Source: a virus
Reading direction: 5' to 3' (one strand)
IMG/VR virus record: IMGVR_UViG_3300020182_000010
Coordinates: 91,153-155,152 of that record
Length of the DNA stretch: 64,000 bases
The translations under genes were made by a program, and so were the position numbers. Shown one piece after another: positions 1 to 10,226 of this stretch. The notes beneath the pieces were generated by a model. It was not told the origin of the DNA. It did no database searches and worked only from the letters and a program-made list of their open reading frames with translations. Numbering within the stretch: position 1 is the stretch's first letter; every line of letters starts with the position of its first letter.

Positions 1-178
1 GTTTTTTATTTAAGACTACTTCTCGTATATTATATTCATTGCCATGTAAAAATTCAGAGGTATGTAATACCCCCATCGCGGTTGGTTTATTTAACAATGT
101 CGAATAATGTTTTGCTAAACTGCGACTTGCAGTTCTTGGAAAACTGATTACCGCTATATTACAAATAGTGTTTGACAT
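1..178 (-). CDS. Partial (3'-truncated by window) sulfotransferase-like protein
   Basis: ATG at 178 reads MSNTICNIAVISFPRTASRSL..., open to window edge; PRTAS resembles the PAPS-binding 5'-PSB loop. Confidence 0.45.
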   Translation of the reverse strand, partial: MSNTICNIAVISFPRTASRSLAKHYSTLLNKPTAMGVLHTSEFLHGNEYNIREVVLNKK

Positions 179-179
179 A

Positions 180-908
180 TCATACATTTCCCGGTGATAC
201 GTTGTTTAAAATAAAAGAATCTACCGCATATTTTGCAAAATCTTCTCCGTAATGAAACGTATGTTTAGTAGAAAAATTGTTATCCTTCGCATAATTAGTA
301 TAGGCAAATGGTATGCTATTAAGTTTTAATATGCTTTTAGATTCTAGAATCCAAGACAAATCATTCCAATTTGAACTCAACGAATGACTTTTTTCTTCGT
401 CTGTGAGCATGGCATCTTCTATATCTGAAAACATAAACTTGCATGGTATGTTTTCATTGTCACAGAATGATTTTAATAATATTATATGTTGAAGTAAATC
501 TGTCTTATCTTGTATTGAATTTTGTATATATTCAAAATACCCAAGTGCTGCTGCATTGAAACCTCTACCCTGATTTAATTTTTCATACCATAAAGATAGT
601 GTAACTGGGTTATTAAGTGTTTTTAAAAACAATTCACGCCTATGTGAATATGTCATCATAAACACTGCGTTGGGTTTCTTGTTTTGTTGAATTAAGTTTT
701 TTATACCGATTATTGCTTTTCGTGTGATTAAATTGTTCGATGCTCCTGGTCTAGAATCGTTAATGACCGATACCCCCATCTGTTCTCCTAACAAAGCCGG
801 CCACGAAAATTTGCTGGTTTTGAAATTATCGACAAATGTATTACCCACATCATCCATTCCAAATCCTTGTGTATGAGAACAGCCACCTGCATATAAAATA
901 TTTTCCAT
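180..908 (-). CDS. SGNH/GDSL-like hydrolase-family phage protein
   Basis: GCSHTQG, SWPALL, PGASN and C-terminal HY motifs; start at 908 is coupled by TAATG to the upstream stop. Confidence 0.55.
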   Translation of the reverse strand: MENILYAGGCSHTQGFGMDDVGNTFVDNFKTSKFSWPALLGEQMGVSVINDSRPGASNNLITRKAIIGIKNLIQQNKKPNAVFMMTYSHRRELFLKTLNNPVTLSLWYEKLNQGRGFNAAALGYFEYIQNSIQDKTDLLQHIILLKSFCDNENIPCKFMFSDIEDAMLTDEEKSHSLSSNWNDLSWILESKSILKLNSIPFAYTNYAKDNNFSTKHTFHYGEDFAKYAVDSFILNNVSPGNV

Positions 909-1501
909 TAGATATTTATTGTTTTTCGCATATTTTCGCATAGTCTTATATCTTTAAGTGGTATGTTTGGAATTTCAAAATGTAAGCACAATCTATTTTC
1001 CGTAACATTTTTAACGCCGTGCCGTTTTGTAATGTTTAGAAATGTCGGAGAAGTTATTTGATACTCTCCGCCATCTTCATAATACGTGATTGATGACGAA
1101 ATCCCCCACAGAGGTATCATCAGAACCGTATTTTTTCTATATGGAAAATCTGAGTGTGTAGGCACATCTTCTCCTGCATGTTGAAGGAAAAATGAAACAT
1201 CACCAATAACGATGTCGTTGTCAATTTTTTCTGATAACTGTTTTATTATATTTGCAATTGTAGGATGAGTAGTGTCACACTTTGAAACAAAATCAGTACG
1301 CTTGTGTACTTTTTTTGTAATCGATTTTTTCAAATCTTTAATCGTATTACCGATTACGTTTATCCCTGTATTTTTACAGAATTCATCTTTGTGATTAATA
1401 TCAATATCATCAATATCATATGATCGCAGAGAGTTATAATAAGAAGTTAATACATCCACATCATAATCTAAATCTATGACTAGTACTTCACGATCATCCA
1501 T
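908..1501 (-). CDS. 2OG-Fe(II) oxygenase (DSBH fold)
   Basis: PTHSD (HxD), then RHGVKN and a downstream R. Confidence 0.65.
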   Translation of the reverse strand: MDDREVLVIDLDYDVDVLTSYYNSLRSYDIDDIDINHKDEFCKNTGINVIGNTIKDLKKSITKKVHKRTDFVSKCDTTHPTIANIIKQLSEKIDNDIVIGDVSFFLQHAGEDVPTHSDFPYRKNTVLMIPLWGISSSITYYEDGGEYQITSPTFLNITKRHGVKNVTENRLCLHFEIPNIPLKDIRLCENMRKTINI

Positions 1502-1570
1502 GAGGTAATTTATCCAAATTCTCTATCTCCATAGTAATTATATGTATTCAAAAAACTATATTCATATTTA

Positions 1571-2248
1571 TTATATTATAAACTGTGTTCGCCATAACAT
1601 ACGTTCACCCTCGAATGCTACTCTTTTATGGATCATTTTTAGATTGTCCCAGATTAATATCTCGTTATCCTGCCATTCATGCATATATGCATTTGCTTCT
1701 ACCCATTCTTTAATAGGACGTAAGTCTATTTCATTATTGCGCAATGTGTTTATACTACAATATAGTATATCTTCACCAGTGACATGATGCTTAATATTAA
1801 ATGGTCGCTTTATTTTTTGTTTCTCTAGTAATCGTAGTTGTCTATCAGTAAAACATTCGCCATGCAAATGTATAGGAGGGTAGTATTCACCTATAGAATC
1901 TTTATACAGTTCTCTAAGTTCAAGTGGTGCATTACTCATATTACAGAACCAAGTTGGTGAAAGATGAGCATTTTTTACATTGTACAATATTGTACCAAAG
2001 TAGTTTCCTCTACCATAACTCCAATCATTATGCCAGTCTACATCGCCGGTATTGAACAATCCATTATTACTTAACTCTTGCACAGTACGATTGTCATTAA
2101 TCACATGCTTGTCTGTGATTAATGGTTTTCCTAATTCACTGACAATATACTCGAAATCTGTTAATGTTATTGAACTATTTAATGAGACTTTCACAAGACC
2201 ATTCGTCATAAGATCCTGCTTGATGGTCTCTATATTCAATTGTTTCAT
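1571..2248 (-). CDS. TauD/TfdA-family dioxygenase
   Basis: WHND, HEWQDNEILIWDNLKMIHKR, RMLWR. Confidence 0.8.
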   Translation of the reverse strand: MKQLNIETIKQDLMTNGLVKVSLNSSITLTDFEYIVSELGKPLITDKHVINDNRTVQELSNNGLFNTGDVDWHNDWSYGRGNYFGTILYNVKNAHLSPTWFCNMSNAPLELRELYKDSIGEYYPPIHLHGECFTDRQLRLLEKQKIKRPFNIKHHVTGEDILYCSINTLRNNEIDLRPIKEWVEANAYMHEWQDNEILIWDNLKMIHKRVAFEGERMLWRTQFII

Positions 2249-3110
2249 CTACCTTTTCCTTTACTTCCTCGTCTCTATACCAAATACCTGCTCTCCACAA
2301 TTCGCGGTCGCCAGTATATGCTTCTCTTTTATGTAGACTGTGATGTTGGTCACTAAAACAGATATCATAATTATTCCATTCGTGTTCATACACATATTTT
2401 TCATCTTGTGTATGCTTTTTCAGTTTATAATATAAGTTATGCTGTGCATCTTTAGAAATTCCACTAAATCCTCGAATAACAGTCCAAGGAAAATATAGGC
2501 CTTCCTTATTATTGATAGGGTGAGTTGTGACTAAATCTTTTCTTGGTGTTTGTTTTTCGAAACTGTTTTGTCCATCTATATCTTTGAACTCCATCATAGT
2601 TTGTTCATCACTAAAAATTCTCTTGTAATACATTTGCTCAAGTTTCAACTTAGCATTATATGTTACGATTTTAGACTTTATGTTACGAAGAATGTCTTTT
2701 GTATTATCATCCAAATCTGCAAAAGCCGTTTGACTATCAGAGAAGAACGTATTTCCACCACTCTCTGCATTTTGATGCATGTACATAACTACAACATCAT
2801 CATGTCCCTTACGATTCATTCCAGCACTATGCCACTCTAATTCACCGTCTTCTTCACCGCTAAATAATCCATTTTTTCTAACTTTAATAAGTTCGCCATG
2901 TCCCGCGACATTTCCTTTGACTTTTGTATTTTGTGATACCACCTCACCAATTGTTTTATAAAATGATACTAGAGTTTCTGGTGGTACTGGATCATTATTT
3001 CTCACTACCACTACACGGCAATCACCTATTAGTTCTCTAATTTTATCTGCATCGTTTTCATAATCGCATTCAGTCACAATTGCTGCAAATTTATTTTTTT
3101 CTACAATCAT
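2175..3110 (-). CDS. TauD/TfdA-family Fe/2OG enzyme with HxA motif (candidate halogenase)
   Basis: WHSAG, GGNTFFSD, HP, HEW...SDQHHSLHKR, RELWR. Confidence 0.75.
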   Translation of the reverse strand: MIVEKNKFAAIVTECDYENDADKIRELIGDCRVVVVRNNDPVPPETLVSFYKTIGEVVSQNTKVKGNVAGHGELIKVRKNGLFSGEEDGELEWHSAGMNRKGHDDVVVMYMHQNAESGGNTFFSDSQTAFADLDDNTKDILRNIKSKIVTYNAKLKLEQMYYKRIFSDEQTMMEFKDIDGQNSFEKQTPRKDLVTTHPINNKEGLYFPWTVIRGFSGISKDAQHNLYYKLKKHTQDEKYVYEHEWNNYDICFSDQHHSLHKREAYTGDRELWRAGIWYRDEEVKEKVDETIEYRDHQAGSYDEWSCESLIK

Positions 3111-3663
3111 TTTTCACTCTTTCTAACCCTATATTTATACAGTCTTTCGTCAATGGAAGCCAAGTTATATTTTGTTCACAACTACTATCTCCGTTGCATA
3201 CATAAAACTGGTCTGTTTCCATGATCCAGTCTGGCCATTGCATTTTGTTGTGCAAGAAGTATTTAAATCCATTAATACCGAACTTACCTTCTCTACTCAT
3301 AAATGCATAATCAAATTTAAGATTGCCAACTAATTCTATCTGCTGTTCAATCATTTGTTTTGTATATTCAATATCGTTAACCGCAAATCTATAATCCGAA
3401 GATTTAATAAATCTATTTAGAACCCTACATCCATTTCCATAAAATTGTTTTCTATGTAAAACAGAAGAAAACCCCAATATTTTACCAGATTGCGTTTCAT
3501 ACGTTGATGCTCCAACCCAATCATCAATGTTTAACCGCTTCATTGTATAATTATATTTTAGATTGTCTTGAAAATTTGATTGTGTAATAAACTGTTTTAT
3601 GCTTTCAATATATGATTCCCAATTATTATCGGCAGAATTTATTGTTTTAATAGTTAAATTCAT
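3091..3663 (-). CDS. Hypothetical protein, possible GNAT fold
   Basis: ILGFSSV...RVLNRF...YR pattern; operonic overlaps with both neighbours. Confidence 0.4.
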   Translation of the reverse strand: MNLTIKTINSADNNWESYIESIKQFITQSNFQDNLKYNYTMKRLNIDDWVGASTYETQSGKILGFSSVLHRKQFYGNGCRVLNRFIKSSDYRFAVNDIEYTKQMIEQQIELVGNLKFDYAFMSREGKFGINGFKYFLHNKMQWPDWIMETDQFYVCNGDSSCEQNITWLPLTKDCINIGLERVKNDCRKK

Positions 3664-4582
3664 TTTGCTTCACATGTTCAAAGAATGGCGCAATTGTCCA
3701 ATTCTGAGTCAACCGTCCTCTACTAGTGTTATCATGATCAATAACACCGTCATCGTCAATTTCCCAATCAATTAATCTTACGTATACTGGTCCTGCTTGT
3801 GTTTCATACTCAAACATCCAGGATGAAAGAGTTTCACCACTTTGTGGTCCTGCCGCAACAACTCCCGCTGCAGTCTTATATATGTCTTTTTCATTAATAC
3901 CTAGTTGTAATTTTGCTATATCTTTAAGTTCTTGTATATTATATGAAGAATTTTCCATATATCTACCAATTTGTCCCACACTTTTCATTCGAAGTACGGG
4001 ACGAATTCTATTATATGGCGGAGTAGTATTAAAATCTATTCCACTATTGCAGGCTAGTTCACCAAATAATTCTATTTGTCTTTTTAATGTATGTTCGTTT
4101 ACATTTTTTGCAATGATTGTACCAGTGTTCACTGGCAGTCTCGCATCAAAAACATTTTTCAATGCTCTAACTTTTACCGTTGACCAATTGCCTTCATCTA
4201 ATACTTTGTATACATTATCATCATCTGCGCCGTTCATACTAAGCAATAGTAATCTGAGGCCTGCATCTTTTAGATTGGATGTGTAACTCTTATTTGCTAA
4301 CTTTAGTCCGTTGGTAGTTAGACTAGGGCGATGTCCTAATCTTTTTGTAGTTGCAATAATCTCACATATATCCTCTCTCATAGTAGGTTCTGCTCCTATT
4401 AATCTGATATAGGTACGAGCAGGTAATCGTTTGATAATGTCAAATAATTTATTTTTATCAATATCTGGAATATCACGATTTGGAATATAACAGTTAGCAC
4501 ACTCCATGTTACATCGATGAGTTAGATCAACTACAATGTTACTGAATGTATTATTTTCTGGTTCTAATTCGTAATAATTCAT
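3647..4582 (-). CDS. Radical SAM enzyme (MoaA-like core)
   Basis: CNMECANC (CxxxCxxC), GAEPT, TTNG. Confidence 0.9.
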   Translation of the reverse strand: MNYYELEPENNTFSNIVVDLTHRCNMECANCYIPNRDIPDIDKNKLFDIIKRLPARTYIRLIGAEPTMREDICEIIATTKRLGHRPSLTTNGLKLANKSYTSNLKDAGLRLLLLSMNGADDDNVYKVLDEGNWSTVKVRALKNVFDARLPVNTGTIIAKNVNEHTLKRQIELFGELACNSGIDFNTTPPYNRIRPVLRMKSVGQIGRYMENSSYNIQELKDIAKLQLGINEKDIYKTAAGVVAAGPQSGETLSSWMFEYETQAGPVYVRLIDWEIDDDGVIDHDNTSRGRLTQNWTIAPFFEHVKQNEFNY

Positions 4583-4918
4583 TTATGATTCAATTGATTT
4601 GTATTCTGCCTGTGTTATAGTCTCTATGTCACTTATTACTAAATATTCACCTAATGATTGTAATAACATTGTTAGATCATTATGCATATCAGATGCATGA
4701 GCCTTATATCGGTAGTAATTGGTCTGGAGCACATTGGAACCGTTATCTACTCTGGTAGATTTTCTATCACCACTAATGTCAAGCTCTTTTTCATCAGATA
4801 GCCGATATGTTATACTGGTGAATTGATCTGAACCAATTGTTTCTTCAAACCACGATAGATATTGATCATGGTTTTTTCCATCTGGGTAATCTATACTAAC
4901 TGTAAATTTATATGGCAT
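4583..4918 (-). CDS. Hypothetical 111-aa protein, first gene of the tailoring operon
   Basis: ORF with AAGGA RBS directly after a TATAAATA box. Confidence 0.7.
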   Translation of the reverse strand: MPYKFTVSIDYPDGKNHDQYLSWFEETIGSDQFTSITYRLSDEKELDISGDRKSTRVDNGSNVLQTNYYRYKAHASDMHNDLTMLLQSLGEYLVISDIETITQAEYKSIES

Positions 4919-4962
4919 TTTTGTTTTCCTTTTGTTTTAATTAAATAATTTATCTAGTTATC

Positions 4963-4970
4963 TATTTATA
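4963..4970 (-). promoter_or_regulatory. T4-type late promoter TATAAATA
   Basis: Exact T4 late consensus, between a terminator and the operon start. Confidence 0.7.
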
Positions 4971-4990
4971 TAATTATATAATTAAGTAAA

Positions 4991-5017
4991 TTGGTCTGGG
5001 CAAATTGCCCAGACCAA
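4991..5017 (-). terminator. Intrinsic terminator hairpin
   Basis: TTGGTCTGGGCAA/TTGCCCAGACCAA perfect inverted repeat. Confidence 0.7.
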
Positions 5018-5023
5018 CATCTA

Positions 5024-5374
5024 TTATTTTCCTTTGTTTACAAAATTGTAAAACTGTTGTGCAGCTTCAAGAATTTGTTCTGTTCCTGGAACTTCTGGCA
5101 TTTCTACCTTCGTTACAACTTCATCATGTTCTTTGCGAACTGATGTTTCGAACATACCATATTTTGCATAATAGTCCTGCCACATTTGTGATTGTGCCAT
5201 TTCTAATACTTGAGTGCGAATTTCATAACCATTTTTATTAAAAGTTACTTTAGGAAGTGAAGGAGGTGTCATTTTTTGAAATGCTTCTGTAAATGCCTCT
5301 GGTTTCATTCCGGTGTTTTTGTATAAATCGCTGAATTTTTCAGCCATCTCTGTCATTTGTTTCATATCGAACAT
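5024..5374 (-). CDS. Hypothetical phage protein (KNGYEIR motif)
   Basis: AAGGAG RBS; immediately downstream of the tmRNA. Confidence 0.75.
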   Translation of the reverse strand: MFDMKQMTEMAEKFSDLYKNTGMKPEAFTEAFQKMTPPSLPKVTFNKNGYEIRTQVLEMAQSQMWQDYYAKYGMFETSVRKEHDEVVTKVEMPEVPGTEQILEAAQQFYNFVNKGK

Positions 5375-5400
5375 ATTGTTCTCCTTTGTGTGTGTGTGTT

Positions 5401-5667
5401 GTGTAACTATTCTGTTGCTAGGTCAGTTACCAACCCCCACGTGCTTAAATTAAGCCGCTAATGCCATTTCTGGCGCATAATTGTTATTTGCAATTATAAA
5501 GTTTATTCGCGGTAACGGCGCTTATATCCCGGTAACTCCATTCATCTATCTTGTCAGTCGATCCTATTTCAGCCCCATAAGAAACACACTTATCTAAATG
5601 TGCTTATGGTGGAGCTGCGCGGTACTGCCCCACGGTCCTGTCCAATCATCAAATCACTTCAACGTTA
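5401..5667 (-). ncRNA. ssrA: tmRNA, circularly permuted two-piece (alphaproteobacterial type)
   Basis: Acceptor piece ends CGTGG-GGCAGTA-CCGCG-CAGCTCCACCA (CCA at 5607); 30-nt spacer; coding piece starts GGGGCTG (5576) giving a G3:U70 pair; tag frame 5491-5450 reads ANNNYAPEMALAA*; outer ends are approximate. Confidence 0.95.
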
Positions 5668-5672
5668 CATTC

Positions 5673-5704
5673 TATTTATAACATATTTTGATAGTGTTGT
5701 CAAG
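5673..5704 (-). promoter_or_regulatory. Dual promoter for tmRNA: sigma70 TTGACA-17-TATAAA overlapping late TATAAATA
   Basis: cTTGACA acactatcaaaatatgt TATAAATA. Confidence 0.7.
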
Positions 5705-6278
5705 TGTTGAATTTATTTTTAATAATTTCAACTACTCTGTCAGATAGAACTATCTCATAATGGTTTCTATCTACTTCTGCATATTCTATATCATTACGAC
5801 AAGTCATACTTTTACGTGTGACAATGCCATCATTTTCACCTGATATCCATGGTACATCGCCAACTGTTGTGACTACCTGAAGCCAATTACACGAAATATC
5901 AATATTACGACTACCTCTGATAAATCTACTATGTGTTGTAATGTCACTAAACATTTCATATCCAGAAAAGAATTTCATTGTTGCTCCCCAAACCGCAATC
6001 TCACTGCCATTAAATGGTGTTGCTAAACTAACAACATTTTTTATTGTATCAAATTCACTTTGTAAATATGTTGCATATACACCACCAAGACTATGTGCTA
6101 TTACAAAAAATTCATCATCTATATCATTCAAAGTTTTCATCATTATAGCAAGATTATCAACTGCCGCTGTATGTTTACTATAATTTAAATATATAGGATC
6201 TTTACAATCCAAAGATTTCTGAATGAAGGCGAAACTTCTTTCACTAGCAGTTGCCCCATGTATATACACTATTCTCAT
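5700..6278 (-). CDS. Alpha/beta hydrolase
   Basis: YIHG, AHSLGG nucleophile elbow, ATPFNGS, NDGIV, NH. Confidence 0.85.
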   Translation of the reverse strand: MRIVYIHGATASERSFAFIQKSLDCKDPIYLNYSKHTAAVDNLAIMMKTLNDIDDEFFVIAHSLGGVYATYLQSEFDTIKNVVSLATPFNGSEIAVWGATMKFFSGYEMFSDITTHSRFIRGSRNIDISCNWLQVVTTVGDVPWISGENDGIVTRKSMTCRNDIEYAEVDRNHYEIVLSDRVVEIIKNKFNT

Positions 6279-6282
6279 TCAT

Positions 6283-6978
6283 TCAAGTCCTGACGCTGTT
6301 GTGCTTGCGATCCATAAACATCTTTGCTGTTTCAACTGCTACTGCTGCATCTCTACAATACGCATCTGCACCAATTGCTTTTCCAAATTCTTCATTTAGT
6401 GGTGCGCCGCCTACTAGTATTGTATAATCATCACGCATACCTTTTTCAATCATTACATCAATAACAACCTTCATATATGGCATTGTTGTTGTAAGTAATG
6501 CACTCATACCTAATATATCTGGATTATGTTCTTCGATTGCATCAAGATAAGCCTGAACATCGTTATTAATACCAATATCGTGTACATCAAATCCTGCACC
6601 TTCCATCATCATGCCAACTAAGTTCTTACCAATGTCATGTATATCACCTTTAACTGTGCCGATAACCATAGTTCCAACTTGTGGTGCGCCTGTTTCCGCA
6701 AGTAGAGGTTTAAGAATTGACATACCGCCTTTCATAGCGTTTGCTGCCAGTAGCACTTCAGGCACAAACAATATGCCATCTCTGAAGTCGATGCCAACAA
6801 TTGTCATACCAGCAACTAAAGATTCTGTTAGTACACGATATGGTTCCCATCCTCGCTCTAATAGAATATTTGTGCCTTCTTCTACCTCTTCTTTTAGACC
6901 ATCATACAAATCATCGCCCATTTGAATTACTAATTCTTCATCATTTAATTCAGAGAGTACAATATTATCATCTTCCAT
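6283..6978 (-). CDS. Stand-alone cobalamin-binding corrinoid protein (cap + B12 domain; MtbC/split MetH-like)
   Basis: GDIHDIGKNLV (DxHxxG), SALLTTT, VGGAP, GADAY; FVPEVL cap domain. Confidence 0.92.
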   Translation of the reverse strand: MEDDNIVLSELNDEELVIQMGDDLYDGLKEEVEEGTNILLERGWEPYRVLTESLVAGMTIVGIDFRDGILFVPEVLLAANAMKGGMSILKPLLAETGAPQVGTMVIGTVKGDIHDIGKNLVGMMMEGAGFDVHDIGINNDVQAYLDAIEEHNPDILGMSALLTTTMPYMKVVIDVMIEKGMRDDYTILVGGAPLNEEFGKAIGADAYCRDAAVAVETAKMFMDRKHNSVRT

Positions 6979-7009
6979 TATTCTTCTCACTTGTATAGGT
7001 TAACATATC

Positions 7010-7017
7010 TATTTATA
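7010..7017 (-). promoter_or_regulatory. Late promoter TATAAATA
   Basis: Exact consensus upstream of the corrinoid gene. Confidence 0.65.
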
Positions 7018-7023
7018 AGCAAT

Positions 7024-7053
7024 AAAAAAGGGGCGCTATTAGCACCCCTTTTT
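7024..7053 (-). terminator. Intrinsic terminator
   Basis: AAAAAAGGGGCGCT...AGCACCCCTTTTT. Confidence 0.75.
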
Positions 7054-7074
7054 CTCAATATATTCACTTTTATA

Positions 7075-8238: not shown

Positions 8239-8390
8239 TCAGATTTCCAGATAGTCCATATACCATATGCAATTGCTGCATATGCAATTAAATCAACTGG
8301 TACAATGAGCATTGCAATTCCAGTTGCAACTAGTGCTGCACCGTCGAGTGTTGTACGTTCTTTTAGTCTATTTTTAATCCAATTAATCAT
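8235..8390 (-). CDS. Small membrane protein (51 aa, not in ORF track)
   Basis: MINWIKNRLKERTTLDGAALVATGIAMLIVPVDLIAYAAIAYGIWTIWKSE; AAGGAG RBS. Confidence 0.75.
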   Translation of the reverse strand: MINWIKNRLKERTTLDGAALVATGIAMLIVPVDLIAYAAIAYGIWTIWKSE

Positions 8391-9312
8391 TTTTTTTCTC
8401 CTTTAATAATTTATTATAAAACAGTTCTTCATCTGGACAATTATTATGTTCAATTTGAATAGTTGTATGTACTATTTTATAATTATCGATTAATAGTTTC
8501 TTGGTATTATATATTGTATCATCACATTCGCCATCATCCAATATATTGATGTGCATAGCGGCTGAAATTTGTCCGCTTGCTAATTCCCATATATGTATAT
8601 GGTGAACATTACTAACATGATCGATATTTGTTATAATATCTTTTACTATAACATCAACATCAATATGTTCTGGTTTTCCAGTCATTAGTATTCTAATACA
8701 ATCTTTTAATAATTCCCAACCACTTTTTAATATCAAACTGGCCAGAACTACACTTATAATAGGATCAATATAATACCAATCAGTAAAATATATTACGATA
8801 CCACCTATAATGGCACCAACACTGCCTAAAATATCAAGTAAGATATGAAGTATCACTCCTCGCATATTAATATTATGACCATCATGGTGATGATGCACCA
8901 CTTTAAATAAAACCAAATTAACGATTAATCCAACAATAGCAATTGGTAACATCCAATATATATCAACATGCTCAGGATTTAGTATACGATAAATTGCTTC
9001 GTATATAATATATCCAAAAAGTCCAATCCACATCAGTGCATTTAAAAATGCTGCAATAACTTCCGCTCTCATAAATCCATATGAATATGTATCTGTTGGT
9101 GGTTTTCTGCCAATCCAAAATCCAAATACTGCAATAATCATTGCTAATGCATCAGTTGAAAGATGTAATGCATCACTCAATAACGCAAGTGAATTACTTA
9201 TATGTGCACCAAATAATTCGATAACAACAAATAATATTAAAATAAAAATGCTTATTTTTAATGCACGTTCTTCTTTGCCGGCTTTTCTGATATGATATTG
9301 ATTATGCTTCAT
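8383..9312 (-). CDS. Cation diffusion facilitator (CzcD/ZitB-like Zn/Co/Cd exporter)
   Basis: SLALLSDALHLSTD, YGFMRAE, His-rich loop, HILLD, HHIHIW, HTTIQIE. Confidence 0.92.
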   Translation of the reverse strand: MKHNQYHIRKAGKEERALKISIFILILFVVIELFGAHISNSLALLSDALHLSTDALAMIIAVFGFWIGRKPPTDTYSYGFMRAEVIAAFLNALMWIGLFGYIIYEAIYRILNPEHVDIYWMLPIAIVGLIVNLVLFKVVHHHHDGHNINMRGVILHILLDILGSVGAIIGGIVIYFTDWYYIDPIISVVLASLILKSGWELLKDCIRILMTGKPEHIDVDVIVKDIITNIDHVSNVHHIHIWELASGQISAAMHINILDDGECDDTIYNTKKLLIDNYKIVHTTIQIEHNNCPDEELFYNKLLKEKKND

Positions 9313-10226
9313 AAATTTTTCATCTTTGTATTATACAATTCTCTAATACCGTTTTCTATACTAATAGTTGGATTCCAACCAATAAGTTTTGTTGCTTTGG
9401 ATATGTCAGCAAGTGTTTCAGTTGCGTAACCTTTGGGTTTATCTTGATTCTCTACTTCTAAATTAGGAAAAAACTCACGTAAAACATTAACAACTTGATT
9501 TACAGAAAAATTTTCACCAGTTCCAACATTAAAAATCTCACTCTTTACTTTAGATTCCATACTTGCAATACATGCATGTGCAACATCACTAACATGAATA
9601 TAATCTCTTCTATATTCACCATCACCGTGAACTGTTAATGGTGTATTTTCATTAGCCATACGATAAAATCTACTGATCATCAATCCATTATTATCGTCTG
9701 ATGGTTGTTCATCACCATATATGGTAAAAAAACGTAATACATTATAATTTAGTCCAAAGACGTTTTTATATTGTTTACATAATTGTTCGCCAAATAATTT
9801 AGTCATTGCATAATAATTTAATGGATCCGGTTTATGAAATGGTTTATGTGGTATAGGATTATTCCCATATATACTTGATGAACTAGCATAAACAAATTTA
9901 CGAATACCTACAGCATGTGCGGCAGTTAATACGTTACGTGTACCAGTAACATTAATGTCAAAGTAAGTATCAGGATCAATAAAACTATCCGGTATTCGGG
10001 TCTTTGCTGCTAGATGTATAACATAATCTTTTCCGGCAGTTGCCATTACACACTTAGCTGCATTTTGTATATCACCTTTAATATACTTTACCATTTTAAA
10101 ATCAGTAGGCTTTTCTACAATATCTAAAACAGTTACTTCGTAACCTTTTCTTAGTAATTGTCTGACAACTTCTCTGCCTACGAAACCAGCGCCGCCAGTG
10201 ACAAGAACTTTACCTTTTGCTAACAT
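9309..10226 (-). CDS. NAD-dependent nucleotide-sugar epimerase/dehydratase
   Basis: TGGAGFVG, HLAA, SSSSIYG, YAMTK (YxxxK), RDYIHVSD. Confidence 0.92.
   Translation of the reverse strand: MLAKGKVLVTGGAGFVGREVVRQLLRKGYEVTVLDIVEKPTDFKMVKYIKGDIQNAAKCVMATAGKDYVIHLAAKTRIPDSFIDPDTYFDINVTGTRNVLTAAHAVGIRKFVYASSSSIYGNNPIPHKPFHKPDPLNYYAMTKLFGEQLCKQYKNVFGLNYNVLRFFTIYGDEQPSDDNNGLMISRFYRMANENTPLTVHGDGEYRRDYIHVSDVAHACIASMESKVKSEIFNVGTGENFSVNQVVNVLREFFPNLEVENQDKPKGYATETLADISKATKLIGWNPTISIENGIRELYNTKMKNL

Follow-up and report, generated by a model that had tools for sequence, protein, structure and literature searches.

Which chemistry might a virus carry out with a tightly packed row of genes for tailoring enzymes? 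The question is raised by the beginning of the stretch analysed here (the window), which comprises 64,000 nucleotides and represents the final 64 kb of a 155,152-bp IMG/VR virus record (IMGVR_UViG_3300020182_000010, positions 91,153 to 155,152). The genomic island in question spans about 7.4 kb and contains 12 genes, of which 11 form a minus-strand operon and one is convergent to it. In order, the window encodes a 111-amino acid (aa) protein, a radical S-adenosylmethionine (SAM) enzyme, a GNAT-fold protein, two TauD proteins (with HxA and HxD motifs, respectively), a 197-aa cupin/AspH-like protein, a 253-aa DUF6071/SGNH-like protein and a 151-aa sulfotransferase-like protein. Proteins are named below by their length (p190, p197, p151 etc.), L001 denotes DNA of the same record that adjoins the window, and relative loci are numbered L0xx. 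Four of the genes, those for the radical SAM enzyme, the GNAT-fold protein p190 and both TauD proteins, constitute a core inherited as a unit. Our tentative reading, to which we give somewhat less than an even chance, is that the island is a modular cassette that would tailor an acyl group and then transfer it to an amine.

The original prediction, made from the letters of the window, had described a terminator and a sequence box followed by tightly coupled genes, the last of which ran off the window. All of these elements are present (a hairpin, a TATAAATA sequence and overlapping minus-strand genes), and the adjoining DNA completes the 151-aa gene, after which the operon continues with genes of 199, 160 and 169 aa, ending 1.9 kb beyond the window edge (at L001:13143). 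Successive genes overlap or abut, the junctions being 0, -17, -20, -74, +69, -34, -8, -10, +10 and -4 nt. The same prediction proposed a multi-step pathway and named synteny in related phages as a check, gene order that is not conserved among relatives being its ground for rejection. The order radical SAM, p190, TauD(HxA), TauD(HxD) is kept in 13 of the 15 informative IMG/VR loci (those with a radical SAM enzyme at least 60% identical and with enough flanking DNA), as well as in three closer contigs (L082-L084; radical SAM enzyme 80-93% identical); therefore, as far as the core is concerned, the order is conserved and that ground does not apply. The pathway itself was borne out in part: a real, conserved multi-enzyme unit exists, but it is not an eight-gene pathway, being composed of the four-gene core and swappable accessories.

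The radical SAM enzyme (311 aa; 3647..4582, minus strand; PF04055, 55.4 bits against a cut-off of 29.5) has more than 1,100 relatives among proteins, with at least 80 IMG/VR loci and about 34 bacterial loci. Its single cluster motif, C24-x3-C28-x2-C31, is conserved in 61 sequences, and its C-terminal domain is family-specific. Since no other conserved cysteine was found outside CxxxCxxC among these 61 homologues, a SPASM/twitch auxiliary cluster is absent. The best solved relatives detected by profile comparison are GDGT-MAS (7TOL, 1e-24) and MoaA (3e-20), in both cases through the core domain only; the Tes model was matched at 3e-17, PqqE and SkfB showed weak similarity, and the nucleoside-sugar enzyme BlsE was matched as well. 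All scores against NCBIfam models lie far under the respective cut-offs (TrsS, 87 vs 490; MoaA, 62-67 vs 231-325; Tes, 62 vs 450). Three assignments were rejected: (i) a SPASM/twitch peptide maturase (PqqE, 53 bits vs 381; no SPASM match in Pfam and no C-terminal cysteines), (ii) MoaA, i.e. GTP 3',8-cyclase (scores below the equivalog cut-offs and, again, no C-terminal cysteines), the JGI 'MoaA' labels of relatives being an over-annotation, and (iii) a Tes/GDGT-MAS lipid synthase, given the Tes score above and a 7TOL match that spans profile positions 17-218 only.

The next core gene (3091..3663, minus strand) encodes p190, a 190-aa GNAT-fold protein and probable acyltransferase. No match was found in Pfam or NCBIfam and a PDB profile search returned nothing meaningful, so to speak of its fold one has to turn to the AlphaFold model (pLDDT 90). 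All 50 top rows in the comparison of this model with VIA were GNAT-fold proteins (Z 9.2-11.1), as were the top ones of 370 Foldseek matches at E <= 1e-3. The alignment of 43 p190 sequences lacks the coenzyme A (CoA) pyrophosphate loop, Q/R-x-x-G-x-G/A, after strand 4, and R80, R84, Q108, F121 and Q164 are invariant. GNAT-fold enzymes that use an acylated acyl carrier protein (acyl-ACP) are also devoid of this loop. The p190 gene is present near the radical SAM gene in 48 of 78 loci. No fused forms of p190 were found among longer proteins, which is weak evidence.

The core is completed by two TauD genes. The first (2175..3110, minus strand; PF02668, 109 bits vs 27) encodes a 311-aa TauD/TfdA-family Fe(II)/2-oxoglutarate (2OG) enzyme with an HxA motif, to which we return below, and the second (1571..2248, minus strand; PF02668, 55.9 bits vs 27) a 225-aa dioxygenase with a canonical HxD...H site, in which WHND, H and R are conserved. 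The 74-nt overlap of the latter gene with the preceding one suggests that its true start lies further in.

What the core does is best approached through its bacterial relatives. The closest cellular relatives of the radical SAM enzyme, revealed by tblastn, are encoded in alphaproteobacterial metagenome-assembled genomes (48-54% identity). In these loci the radical SAM gene is mostly followed by a TauD gene (L086, L087, L089 and L090), and in five of the six an acyltransferase of a family other than p190 then follows. Genes for a HlyC/ApxC toxin-activating lysine acyltransferase occur after the radical SAM gene in L089, L090 and L091 (L089:9641-10111, L090:9594-10112 and L091:1685-2242; radical SAM enzyme 48-53% identical), with TauD between them in L089 and L090; the ApxC homologue of L090 matches PDB 4WHN with E = 2.4e-19, and that of L091 was recognized by hhalign (99.4%). 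The same slot holds a GNAT of the Pfam family Acetyltransf_1 in L086 and a homologous 208-aa protein (32% identity in BLASTP) in L088. ApxC-type enzymes use acyl-ACP to acylate protein lysines. p190 was rejected as a HlyC/ApxC member (hhalign 0.1% against the homologues from L089 and L090), gene position alone being common to them. Thus, acyltransferases of three unrelated families fill the slot after the radical SAM gene or the radical SAM-TauD pair, and because of this we regard acyl transfer as integral to the unit. This slot replacement is the strongest functional clue that the locus offers.

Concerning the surroundings of these bacterial units, ABC exporters adjoin L086, L087 and L090. 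A context of RTX proteins and type I secretion was considered as a general rule and rejected: an RTX protein and a C39 exporter are present only in L086, the ABC exporters of L087 and L090 being plain ones. Within 8 kb of the ApxC-type genes of L089, L090 and L091 there is no RTX protein gene, and their arrangement behind a radical SAM gene constitutes an undescribed context for the ApxC/HlyC family. A weak match to the lipid A hydroxylase LpxO was obtained with AspH-family neighbours.

Acyl-related genes also accompany more distant radical SAM genes of phages (35-45% identity of the products). A DesA-type membrane desaturase gene adjoins the radical SAM gene in 38 such loci, and genes for AspH-like proteins, for p190 and for a small protein (about 100 aa) recur in the distant loci as well. 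Thirteen distant loci carry a bona fide ACP gene (DSLD motif; TIGR00517, 82.8 bits vs 70.45), and several of these an AcpS-like gene too, albeit with a weak match (Pfam ACPS, E 0.0056, 17.1 bits vs 25). Examples of ACP genes beside the desaturase and radical SAM genes of uncultured phages (L044-L067) are L054:6942-7190 and L057:3168-3467. Within Bdellovibrionota genomes a trio of desaturase, radical SAM and AspH genes was found, followed in L094 by a p190 homologue (hhalign 99.3%); a p190-type GNAT fold is also encoded in L092.

What has been observed is which genes are present, their synteny and the replacement in the slot; each chemical step of the following scheme is one that we infer. A fatty-acyl or similar group, probably held on the host ACP, would be functionalised at unactivated carbons. 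The radical SAM enzyme would abstract a hydrogen atom, and the Fe(II)/2OG enzymes (the two TauD proteins and three to five AspH-like cupins) would hydroxylate, the HxA TauD protein possibly catalysing a non-canonical reaction. The GNAT-fold protein would then move the acyl group to an amine, either of a protein lysine or of an amino-lipid head group. Among the accessories present in this phage, p151 might add sulfate and the SGNH-like protein might hydrolyse or move an ester. The whole cassette would be transcribed late, from a T4-type promoter. As the island lies in a variable region near tail-fibre genes, the acceptor may be a component of the virion or of the cell envelope.

The acylation scheme is supported by the similarity of the radical SAM enzyme to GDGT-MAS, an enzyme of lipid tails and its best solved relative, as well as by the lack of a CoA pyrophosphate loop in p190 and the recurrence of Sulfotransfer_2 and SGNH-type genes in the cassette. 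The weak LpxO matches of AspH-family neighbours and the ABC exporters adjoining L086, L087 and L090 also speak for it. Several points weigh against it. No genes for ACP, AcpS or a desaturase (FA_desaturase, PP-binding) were found in the 155-kb record, although it is rated only 42% complete. The loci that do carry ACP and desaturase genes encode a radical SAM enzyme only 35-45% identical, and its function may therefore have shifted. The GDGT-MAS similarity concerns the generic radical SAM core only, at scores far under the family cut-offs, and a GNAT fold names neither the donor nor the acceptor. Furthermore, no member of the cassette family is known to act on acyl chains, amino acids, peptides and small sulfonates are equally good substrates for the TauD and AspH families, and an RTX-protein neighbour is seen in a single locus.

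In a narrower form of this scheme, a custom fatty-acyl group, hydroxylated and perhaps also sulfated or halogenated, would be made by the phage at a late stage of infection and put on a lysine of one of its own proteins, so that the lipidated virion grips the host outer membrane, by analogy with CdiC acting on CdiA. The acceptor lysine may be that of a tail-fibre/receptor-binding protein or of the 111-aa protein. This is a speculative and quite unlikely version; if true, it would constitute a new kind of phage virion modification, with new radical-SAM/2OG acyl-tailoring chemistry.

Could the product be a sugar rather than a lipid? On this view, which we consider unlikely, the enzymes would tailor a glycan or a sugar nucleotide and yield an unusual N-acylated, hydroxylated and sulfated sugar, destined for the envelope of the host or for glycosylation of the virion, in line with what has been proposed for islands of lipopolysaccharide genes in pelagimyophages. 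Enzymes of the GNAT, sulfotransferase and SGNH types commonly tailor sugars, the radical SAM enzyme matches BlsE, and the variable region includes a gene for an NAD-dependent epimerase/dehydratase 5 kb upstream of the island and tail-fibre-like genes 11-16 kb upstream. In addition, the literature on pelagimyophages (PMC7029224) places radical-SAM cassettes and lipopolysaccharide genes in their host recognition cluster. However, neither the operon nor the conserved core encodes a glycosyltransferase, a nucleotidyl-sugar synthase or an aminotransferase, and the recurrent partners of the radical SAM gene are those for ACP, desaturase and lysine acyltransferases, not for sugar enzymes. The epimerase/dehydratase (305 aa) has a neighbour of its own, a 309-aa cation-diffusion-facilitator metal efflux transporter, the two genes overlapping by 4 nt (window 8383-10226, minus strand).

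The accessory genes raise another doubt, namely whether there is a single pathway at all. The region might be a hot spot that gathers independent auxiliary oxygenase genes, with only the radical SAM and GNAT proteins cooperating. Variable regions of marine T4-like phages are known to carry multiple 2OG oxygenase genes. The accessory content varies even between close relatives: p151 is encoded in 7-9 loci, p199 and p169 in about 10, p197 in 4-6 and p253 in 1-2. Insertions in other loci comprise a true Sulfotransfer_2 gene (7e-15), an SGNH gene of the GDS type and genes for B12-dependent radical SAM methylases, PP-loop enzymes and a Rieske oxygenase. Moreover, AspH-like paralogues lie dispersed, with many different arrangements and orientations. 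We nevertheless give the hot-spot explanation a low probability, considering that the genes overlap or abut and have one candidate promoter and one terminator in common, the order of the four core genes is kept at 50-70% identity, and the same enzyme classes recur around bacterial radical SAM genes.

The accessory set includes candidate oxygenases. The 197-aa protein (908..1501, minus strand) is a candidate cupin/AspH-like oxygenase with an invariant H116-x-D118...H161 motif, and no more than 5-6 relatives have it. A direct HMM, Pfam or PDB sequence match was not found for it, and its family gave nothing above noise in Pfam; the assignment follows a chain of hhalign comparisons, in which p197 is linked to family c21 (95.8%) and to p199 (84%), and c21 to the AspH-like p199 family (97.3%). 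The cupin-like p199 (L001:14142-14741, minus strand; HxD...H) is linked to AspH families at 93-96% by hhalign and has no PF05118 match itself, although a representative of its family (L064) scores 24.6 bits against the cut-off of 22.6. Two further cupin-like proteins with the HxD...H motif are p160 (L001:13649-14131, minus strand), with weak profile links only, and p169 (L001:13143-13652, minus strand), linked to p199 at 96.7% by hhalign. The convergent gene (L001:12531-13157, plus strand) encodes an AspH-family oxygenase (PF05118, 31 bits), overlaps the last operon gene tail to tail by 15 nt and is the only plus-strand gene of the region. Given the HxD...H motifs of the cupin-like proteins and their chained AspH profile matches (84-97%), up to seven of the 12 island genes are predicted to encode non-haem iron oxygenases.

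The remaining accessories are of other types. The DUF6071/SGNH-hydrolase-like protein p253 (180..941, minus strand; start probably at Met12, position 908) scores 16 bits against the Pfam DUF6071 cut-off of 27, gives an ESM Atlas value of 0.97 with TM 0.81 to viral DUF6071/SGNH clusters, and is connected by hhalign (92%) with a family that carries the GDS motif and belongs to the cassette of L035-L037. Its block I motif reads G-C-S-H-T, in which Ser is kept and Asp is replaced by Cys. The gene of p151 has its first 62 codons in the window (1..187, minus strand; full gene L001:14732-15187). Inspection of nine p151 sequences indicated an invariant P17-R-T-A-S21 loop and R94-x7-S102, with no Walker A motif; the two correspond to the 5'-phosphosulfate loop (PKxGxT-like) and the 3'-phosphate motif (R-x7-S) of sulfotransferases. 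The AlphaFold model (pLDDT 85) resembles shikimate kinase (Z 9.2) and the Stf0 sulfotransferase (Z 7.9), and since this fold is common to kinases and sulfotransferases, p151 is labelled as a probable sulfotransferase-like protein only. One of the nine family members matches Sulfotransfer_2 (E 0.084); otherwise nothing in Pfam rose above noise, and PDB profile searches with p151 and p197 gave nothing meaningful. At 151 aa the protein is short in comparison with known sulfotransferases (roughly 200-300 aa).

Genes for a P-loop kinase (Pfam APS-kinase, 29.7 bits vs 21.1) and a 127-aa nucleotidyltransferase are located 1-2 kb beyond the operon (L001:11558-12389). This pair recurs near the radical SAM cassette in at least six viral loci, and the relative with a 93% identical radical SAM enzyme has a 146-aa APS-kinase-like gene just before the lead gene. 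The pair could supply 3'-phosphoadenosine-5'-phosphosulfate or perform a split, NadR-like NAD salvage; because the latter fits equally well, we do not rely on it as a source of sulfate.

The first gene of the operon bears on a further explanation, which requires no acyl group. Here the radical SAM enzyme and the oxygenases would act directly on amino-acid residues, either in the 111-aa protein or in a protein of the virion, in a manner resembling the maturation of ribosomally synthesised peptides carrying post-translational modifications (RiPPs). The 111-aa protein is acidic (pI 4.6), has no Cys and is encoded by a gene that abuts the radical SAM gene (4583..4918, minus strand); the loop that varies most contains an invariant K-x-x-R-x-D. 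Hydroxylases of peptides and amino acids are known among the AspH and TauD families, the weak similarity of the radical SAM enzyme to PqqE and SkfB points in the same direction, and one relative lies between an RTX protein and a C39 ABC exporter. Only five relatives of the 111-aa protein were found among 5.8 billion proteins, with 49-90% identity, and the gene, abutting the radical SAM gene, is restricted to relatives with an 85-93% identical radical SAM enzyme, being missing in all those in which this enzyme is at most 80% identical. The small genes that replace it upstream of the radical SAM gene in other loci are unrelated (no homology by phmmer; hhalign probabilities <=1%), and a joint alignment of their products with the 111-aa protein was unconvincing.

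No family match was found for the 111-aa protein in Pfam, NCBIfam or PHROGs, and its ESM Atlas model, of low confidence, has a ferredoxin-like fold. Its conserved residues are spread along the whole length, with no leader/core pattern. It appears to be a real but narrowly distributed gene, and its restriction to the nearest relatives, together with this whole-length conservation, makes it unlike a RiPP precursor. The radical SAM enzyme lacks the SPASM/twitch cysteines of peptide maturases; no RiPP recognition element (RRE), protease or exporter was found in the phage operon, and the conserved core has no protease, RRE or leader/core pattern either. For these reasons, the suggestion made in the original prediction, that the small lead ORF (open reading frame) could be a RiPP-like substrate or scaffold, is not supported, and RiPP-like maturation of any acceptor is rather improbable. 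The 111-aa protein, with its invariant K-x-x-R-x-D, may serve as a folded partner or as an acceptor.

The HxA TauD protein suggests a different product. In its motif, H94-S-A96 (WHSAG), A96 aligns with the Asp ligand of TfdA (5BKE, WHSD), and WH[SC]AG is present in all 17 orthologues of the loci as well as in L082 and L084. The canonical HxD/E...H facial triad was thus not found in this protein, and it was found in the 225-aa paralogue. The distal His and the 2OG-binding Arg are retained, and the protein might therefore be a phage Fe(II)/2OG halogenase, with the cassette making a chlorinated (and sulfated) compound. The position of the Ala, exactly that of the carboxylate ligand and invariant among orthologues, speaks for such a halogenating pathway, as does the fact that sea water is rich in chloride. 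Yet halogenase-type Ala with retained His and Arg is a necessary feature, not a sufficient one. A search of 1.8 billion representatives revealed that, among 130 representative relatives, the carboxylate position is occupied by Ala in 12, by Asn in about 55 and by Asp/Glu in about 55. The loss of the carboxylate appears to be old in this clade and mostly to Asn, which is not the halogenase signature, and this weakens a simple halogenase reading. The relatives P0128-P0275 form a large, apparently uncharacterised TauD-like clade, in which WHxD is replaced by WHxN or WHxA, and the usual DN...H by DQxHxxHKR. Known Fe(II)/2OG halogenases (SyrB2, WelO5 and BesD type) likewise have two His ligands and Ala instead of the carboxylate; unlike the phage protein, they belong to a fold family other than TauD/TfdA, and the phage cassette is without a carrier protein or a known halogenase context. 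We know of no described TauD-family halogenase, and we find this explanation distinctly unlikely.

Hypermodification of a nucleotide or DNA base is very improbable: the radical SAM enzyme is MoaA-like and BlsE-like, and the kinase and nucleotidyltransferase genes recur near the cassette, but this pair equally fits NAD salvage, TauD and AspH are not of the TET/JBP type, and the core has no glycosylase-fold, transferase or DNA-binding parts.

The acyl-tailoring scheme also includes late transcription, for which the DNA upstream of the operon holds candidate signals. A terminator-like hairpin (4991..5017, minus strand) with a perfect 13-bp stem (-22.7 kcal/mol, z = -6.3; no shuffled sequence folds as well) is situated after the stop of the upstream 116-aa gene (which ends at 5024), with a T-rich tail next to it, and would end the transcript of that gene. 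The ATG at 4918 is preceded, at a distance of 44 nt, by a TATAAATA box (4963..4970, minus strand) that is a candidate late promoter of T4 type. In the 155-kb record this sequence occurs 14 times on the coding strand and four times on the other; its total count is not above the base-composition expectation, while eight of the 14 coding-strand copies fall in non-coding DNA, which makes up 9.6% of the sequence. This distribution fits T4-type late promoter use, and late expression of the operon from the box is plausible. A second TATAAATA copy (window 3132-3139), within the 3' end of the GNAT-fold gene and 21 nt before the HxA TauD start, may be an internal late promoter.

As for its origin, the record (G+C 32-38%; CheckV completeness 42%) most likely represents part of the genome of a giant marine phage that is uncultured. 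Nearly all genes are on the minus strand. The encoded proteins include a large terminase of T4 type, most closely matched in PA5oct-like jumbo phages (55% identity), as well as a helicase of DnaB type, UvsX, a primase and a class I ribonucleotide reductase. A DNA search of GenBank phages with window positions 1-6000 gave no match, nor did tblastn with both TauD proteins against phage records; the radical SAM enzyme yielded two weak Enterococcus phage matches only, and PHROGs generic radical SAM families only. No flanking direct repeats were found around the island. Elsewhere in the record, window 5700-7054 (minus strand) encodes a stand-alone cobalamin-binding protein of 235 aa (B12-binding and B12-binding_2 domains), whose gene has a separate TATAAATA box (7010) and a terminator hairpin (7024-7054). 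This gene is followed by an alpha/beta-hydrolase-like gene (192 aa), has no obvious methyltransferase partner, and has upstream a 257-aa gene without a family. Finally, a complete ClpX homologue (zinc finger and AAA domain) is encoded 15-17 kb to the left of the window (L001:6090-8735), beside a 456-aa membrane protein with a tetraspanin-like match.

With at least 80 viral contigs, the cassette is among the most widespread units in the islands of unexplained enzymes of marine T4-like and jumbo phages. The swapping of acyltransferase, ACP and desaturase genes, together with the defined four-gene core, gives a bench-testable hypothesis of acyl tailoring followed by transfer. If true, it would mean virus-directed lipidation or lipid remodelling in abundant ocean microbes, as well as new radical-SAM and Fe/2OG chemistry, including that of a large TauD clade without the usual carboxylate ligand.

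Among known systems, the pelagimyophage and cyanomyophage islands (PMC7029224) are alike in belonging to marine T4-like phages with large variable regions near tail fibres, whereas the terminase of the present phage is nearest to PA5oct-type jumbo phages (55%) and not to known pelagimyophages. That paper only notes radical-SAM cassettes and gives no account of what they contain, of a core, of relatives in bacteria or of their chemistry; no paper describing the composition or chemistry of the cassette was found in the literature searched. The OlsB-type N-acyltransferase and the AspH-family hydroxylases OlsC/LpxO, which tailor aminolipids and lipid A, resemble the cassette in combining a GNAT fold with the AspH family, and in the weak LpxO match of a bacterial neighbour, but scores are far under the family cut-offs and no OlsA or OlsB homologue was detected. 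The GDGT-MAS/Tes family of radical SAM enzymes activates unreactive carbons of lipid tails (PMC13459092), and GDGT-MAS (7TOL) is the best solved sequence relative of the phage radical SAM core; the phage enzyme differs in its length (311 aa vs about 490-526 aa), in having no extra Fe-S clusters and in its unique C-terminal domain. HlyC/ApxC and CdiC enzymes transfer a fatty acyl group, sometimes hydroxylated, from ACP to a protein lysine, and CdiC lipidates a receptor-binding domain (PMC8510554). In bacterial radical SAM(-TauD) units an ApxC homologue (cf. 4WHN) takes the position that p190 has in phages; p190, however, stands outside this family, the phage has no RTX-type or CdiA-type acceptor, and the known systems have no radical SAM or TauD partners. 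Set beside these systems, the cassette is a real and conserved combination of known enzyme superfamilies into an undescribed pathway.

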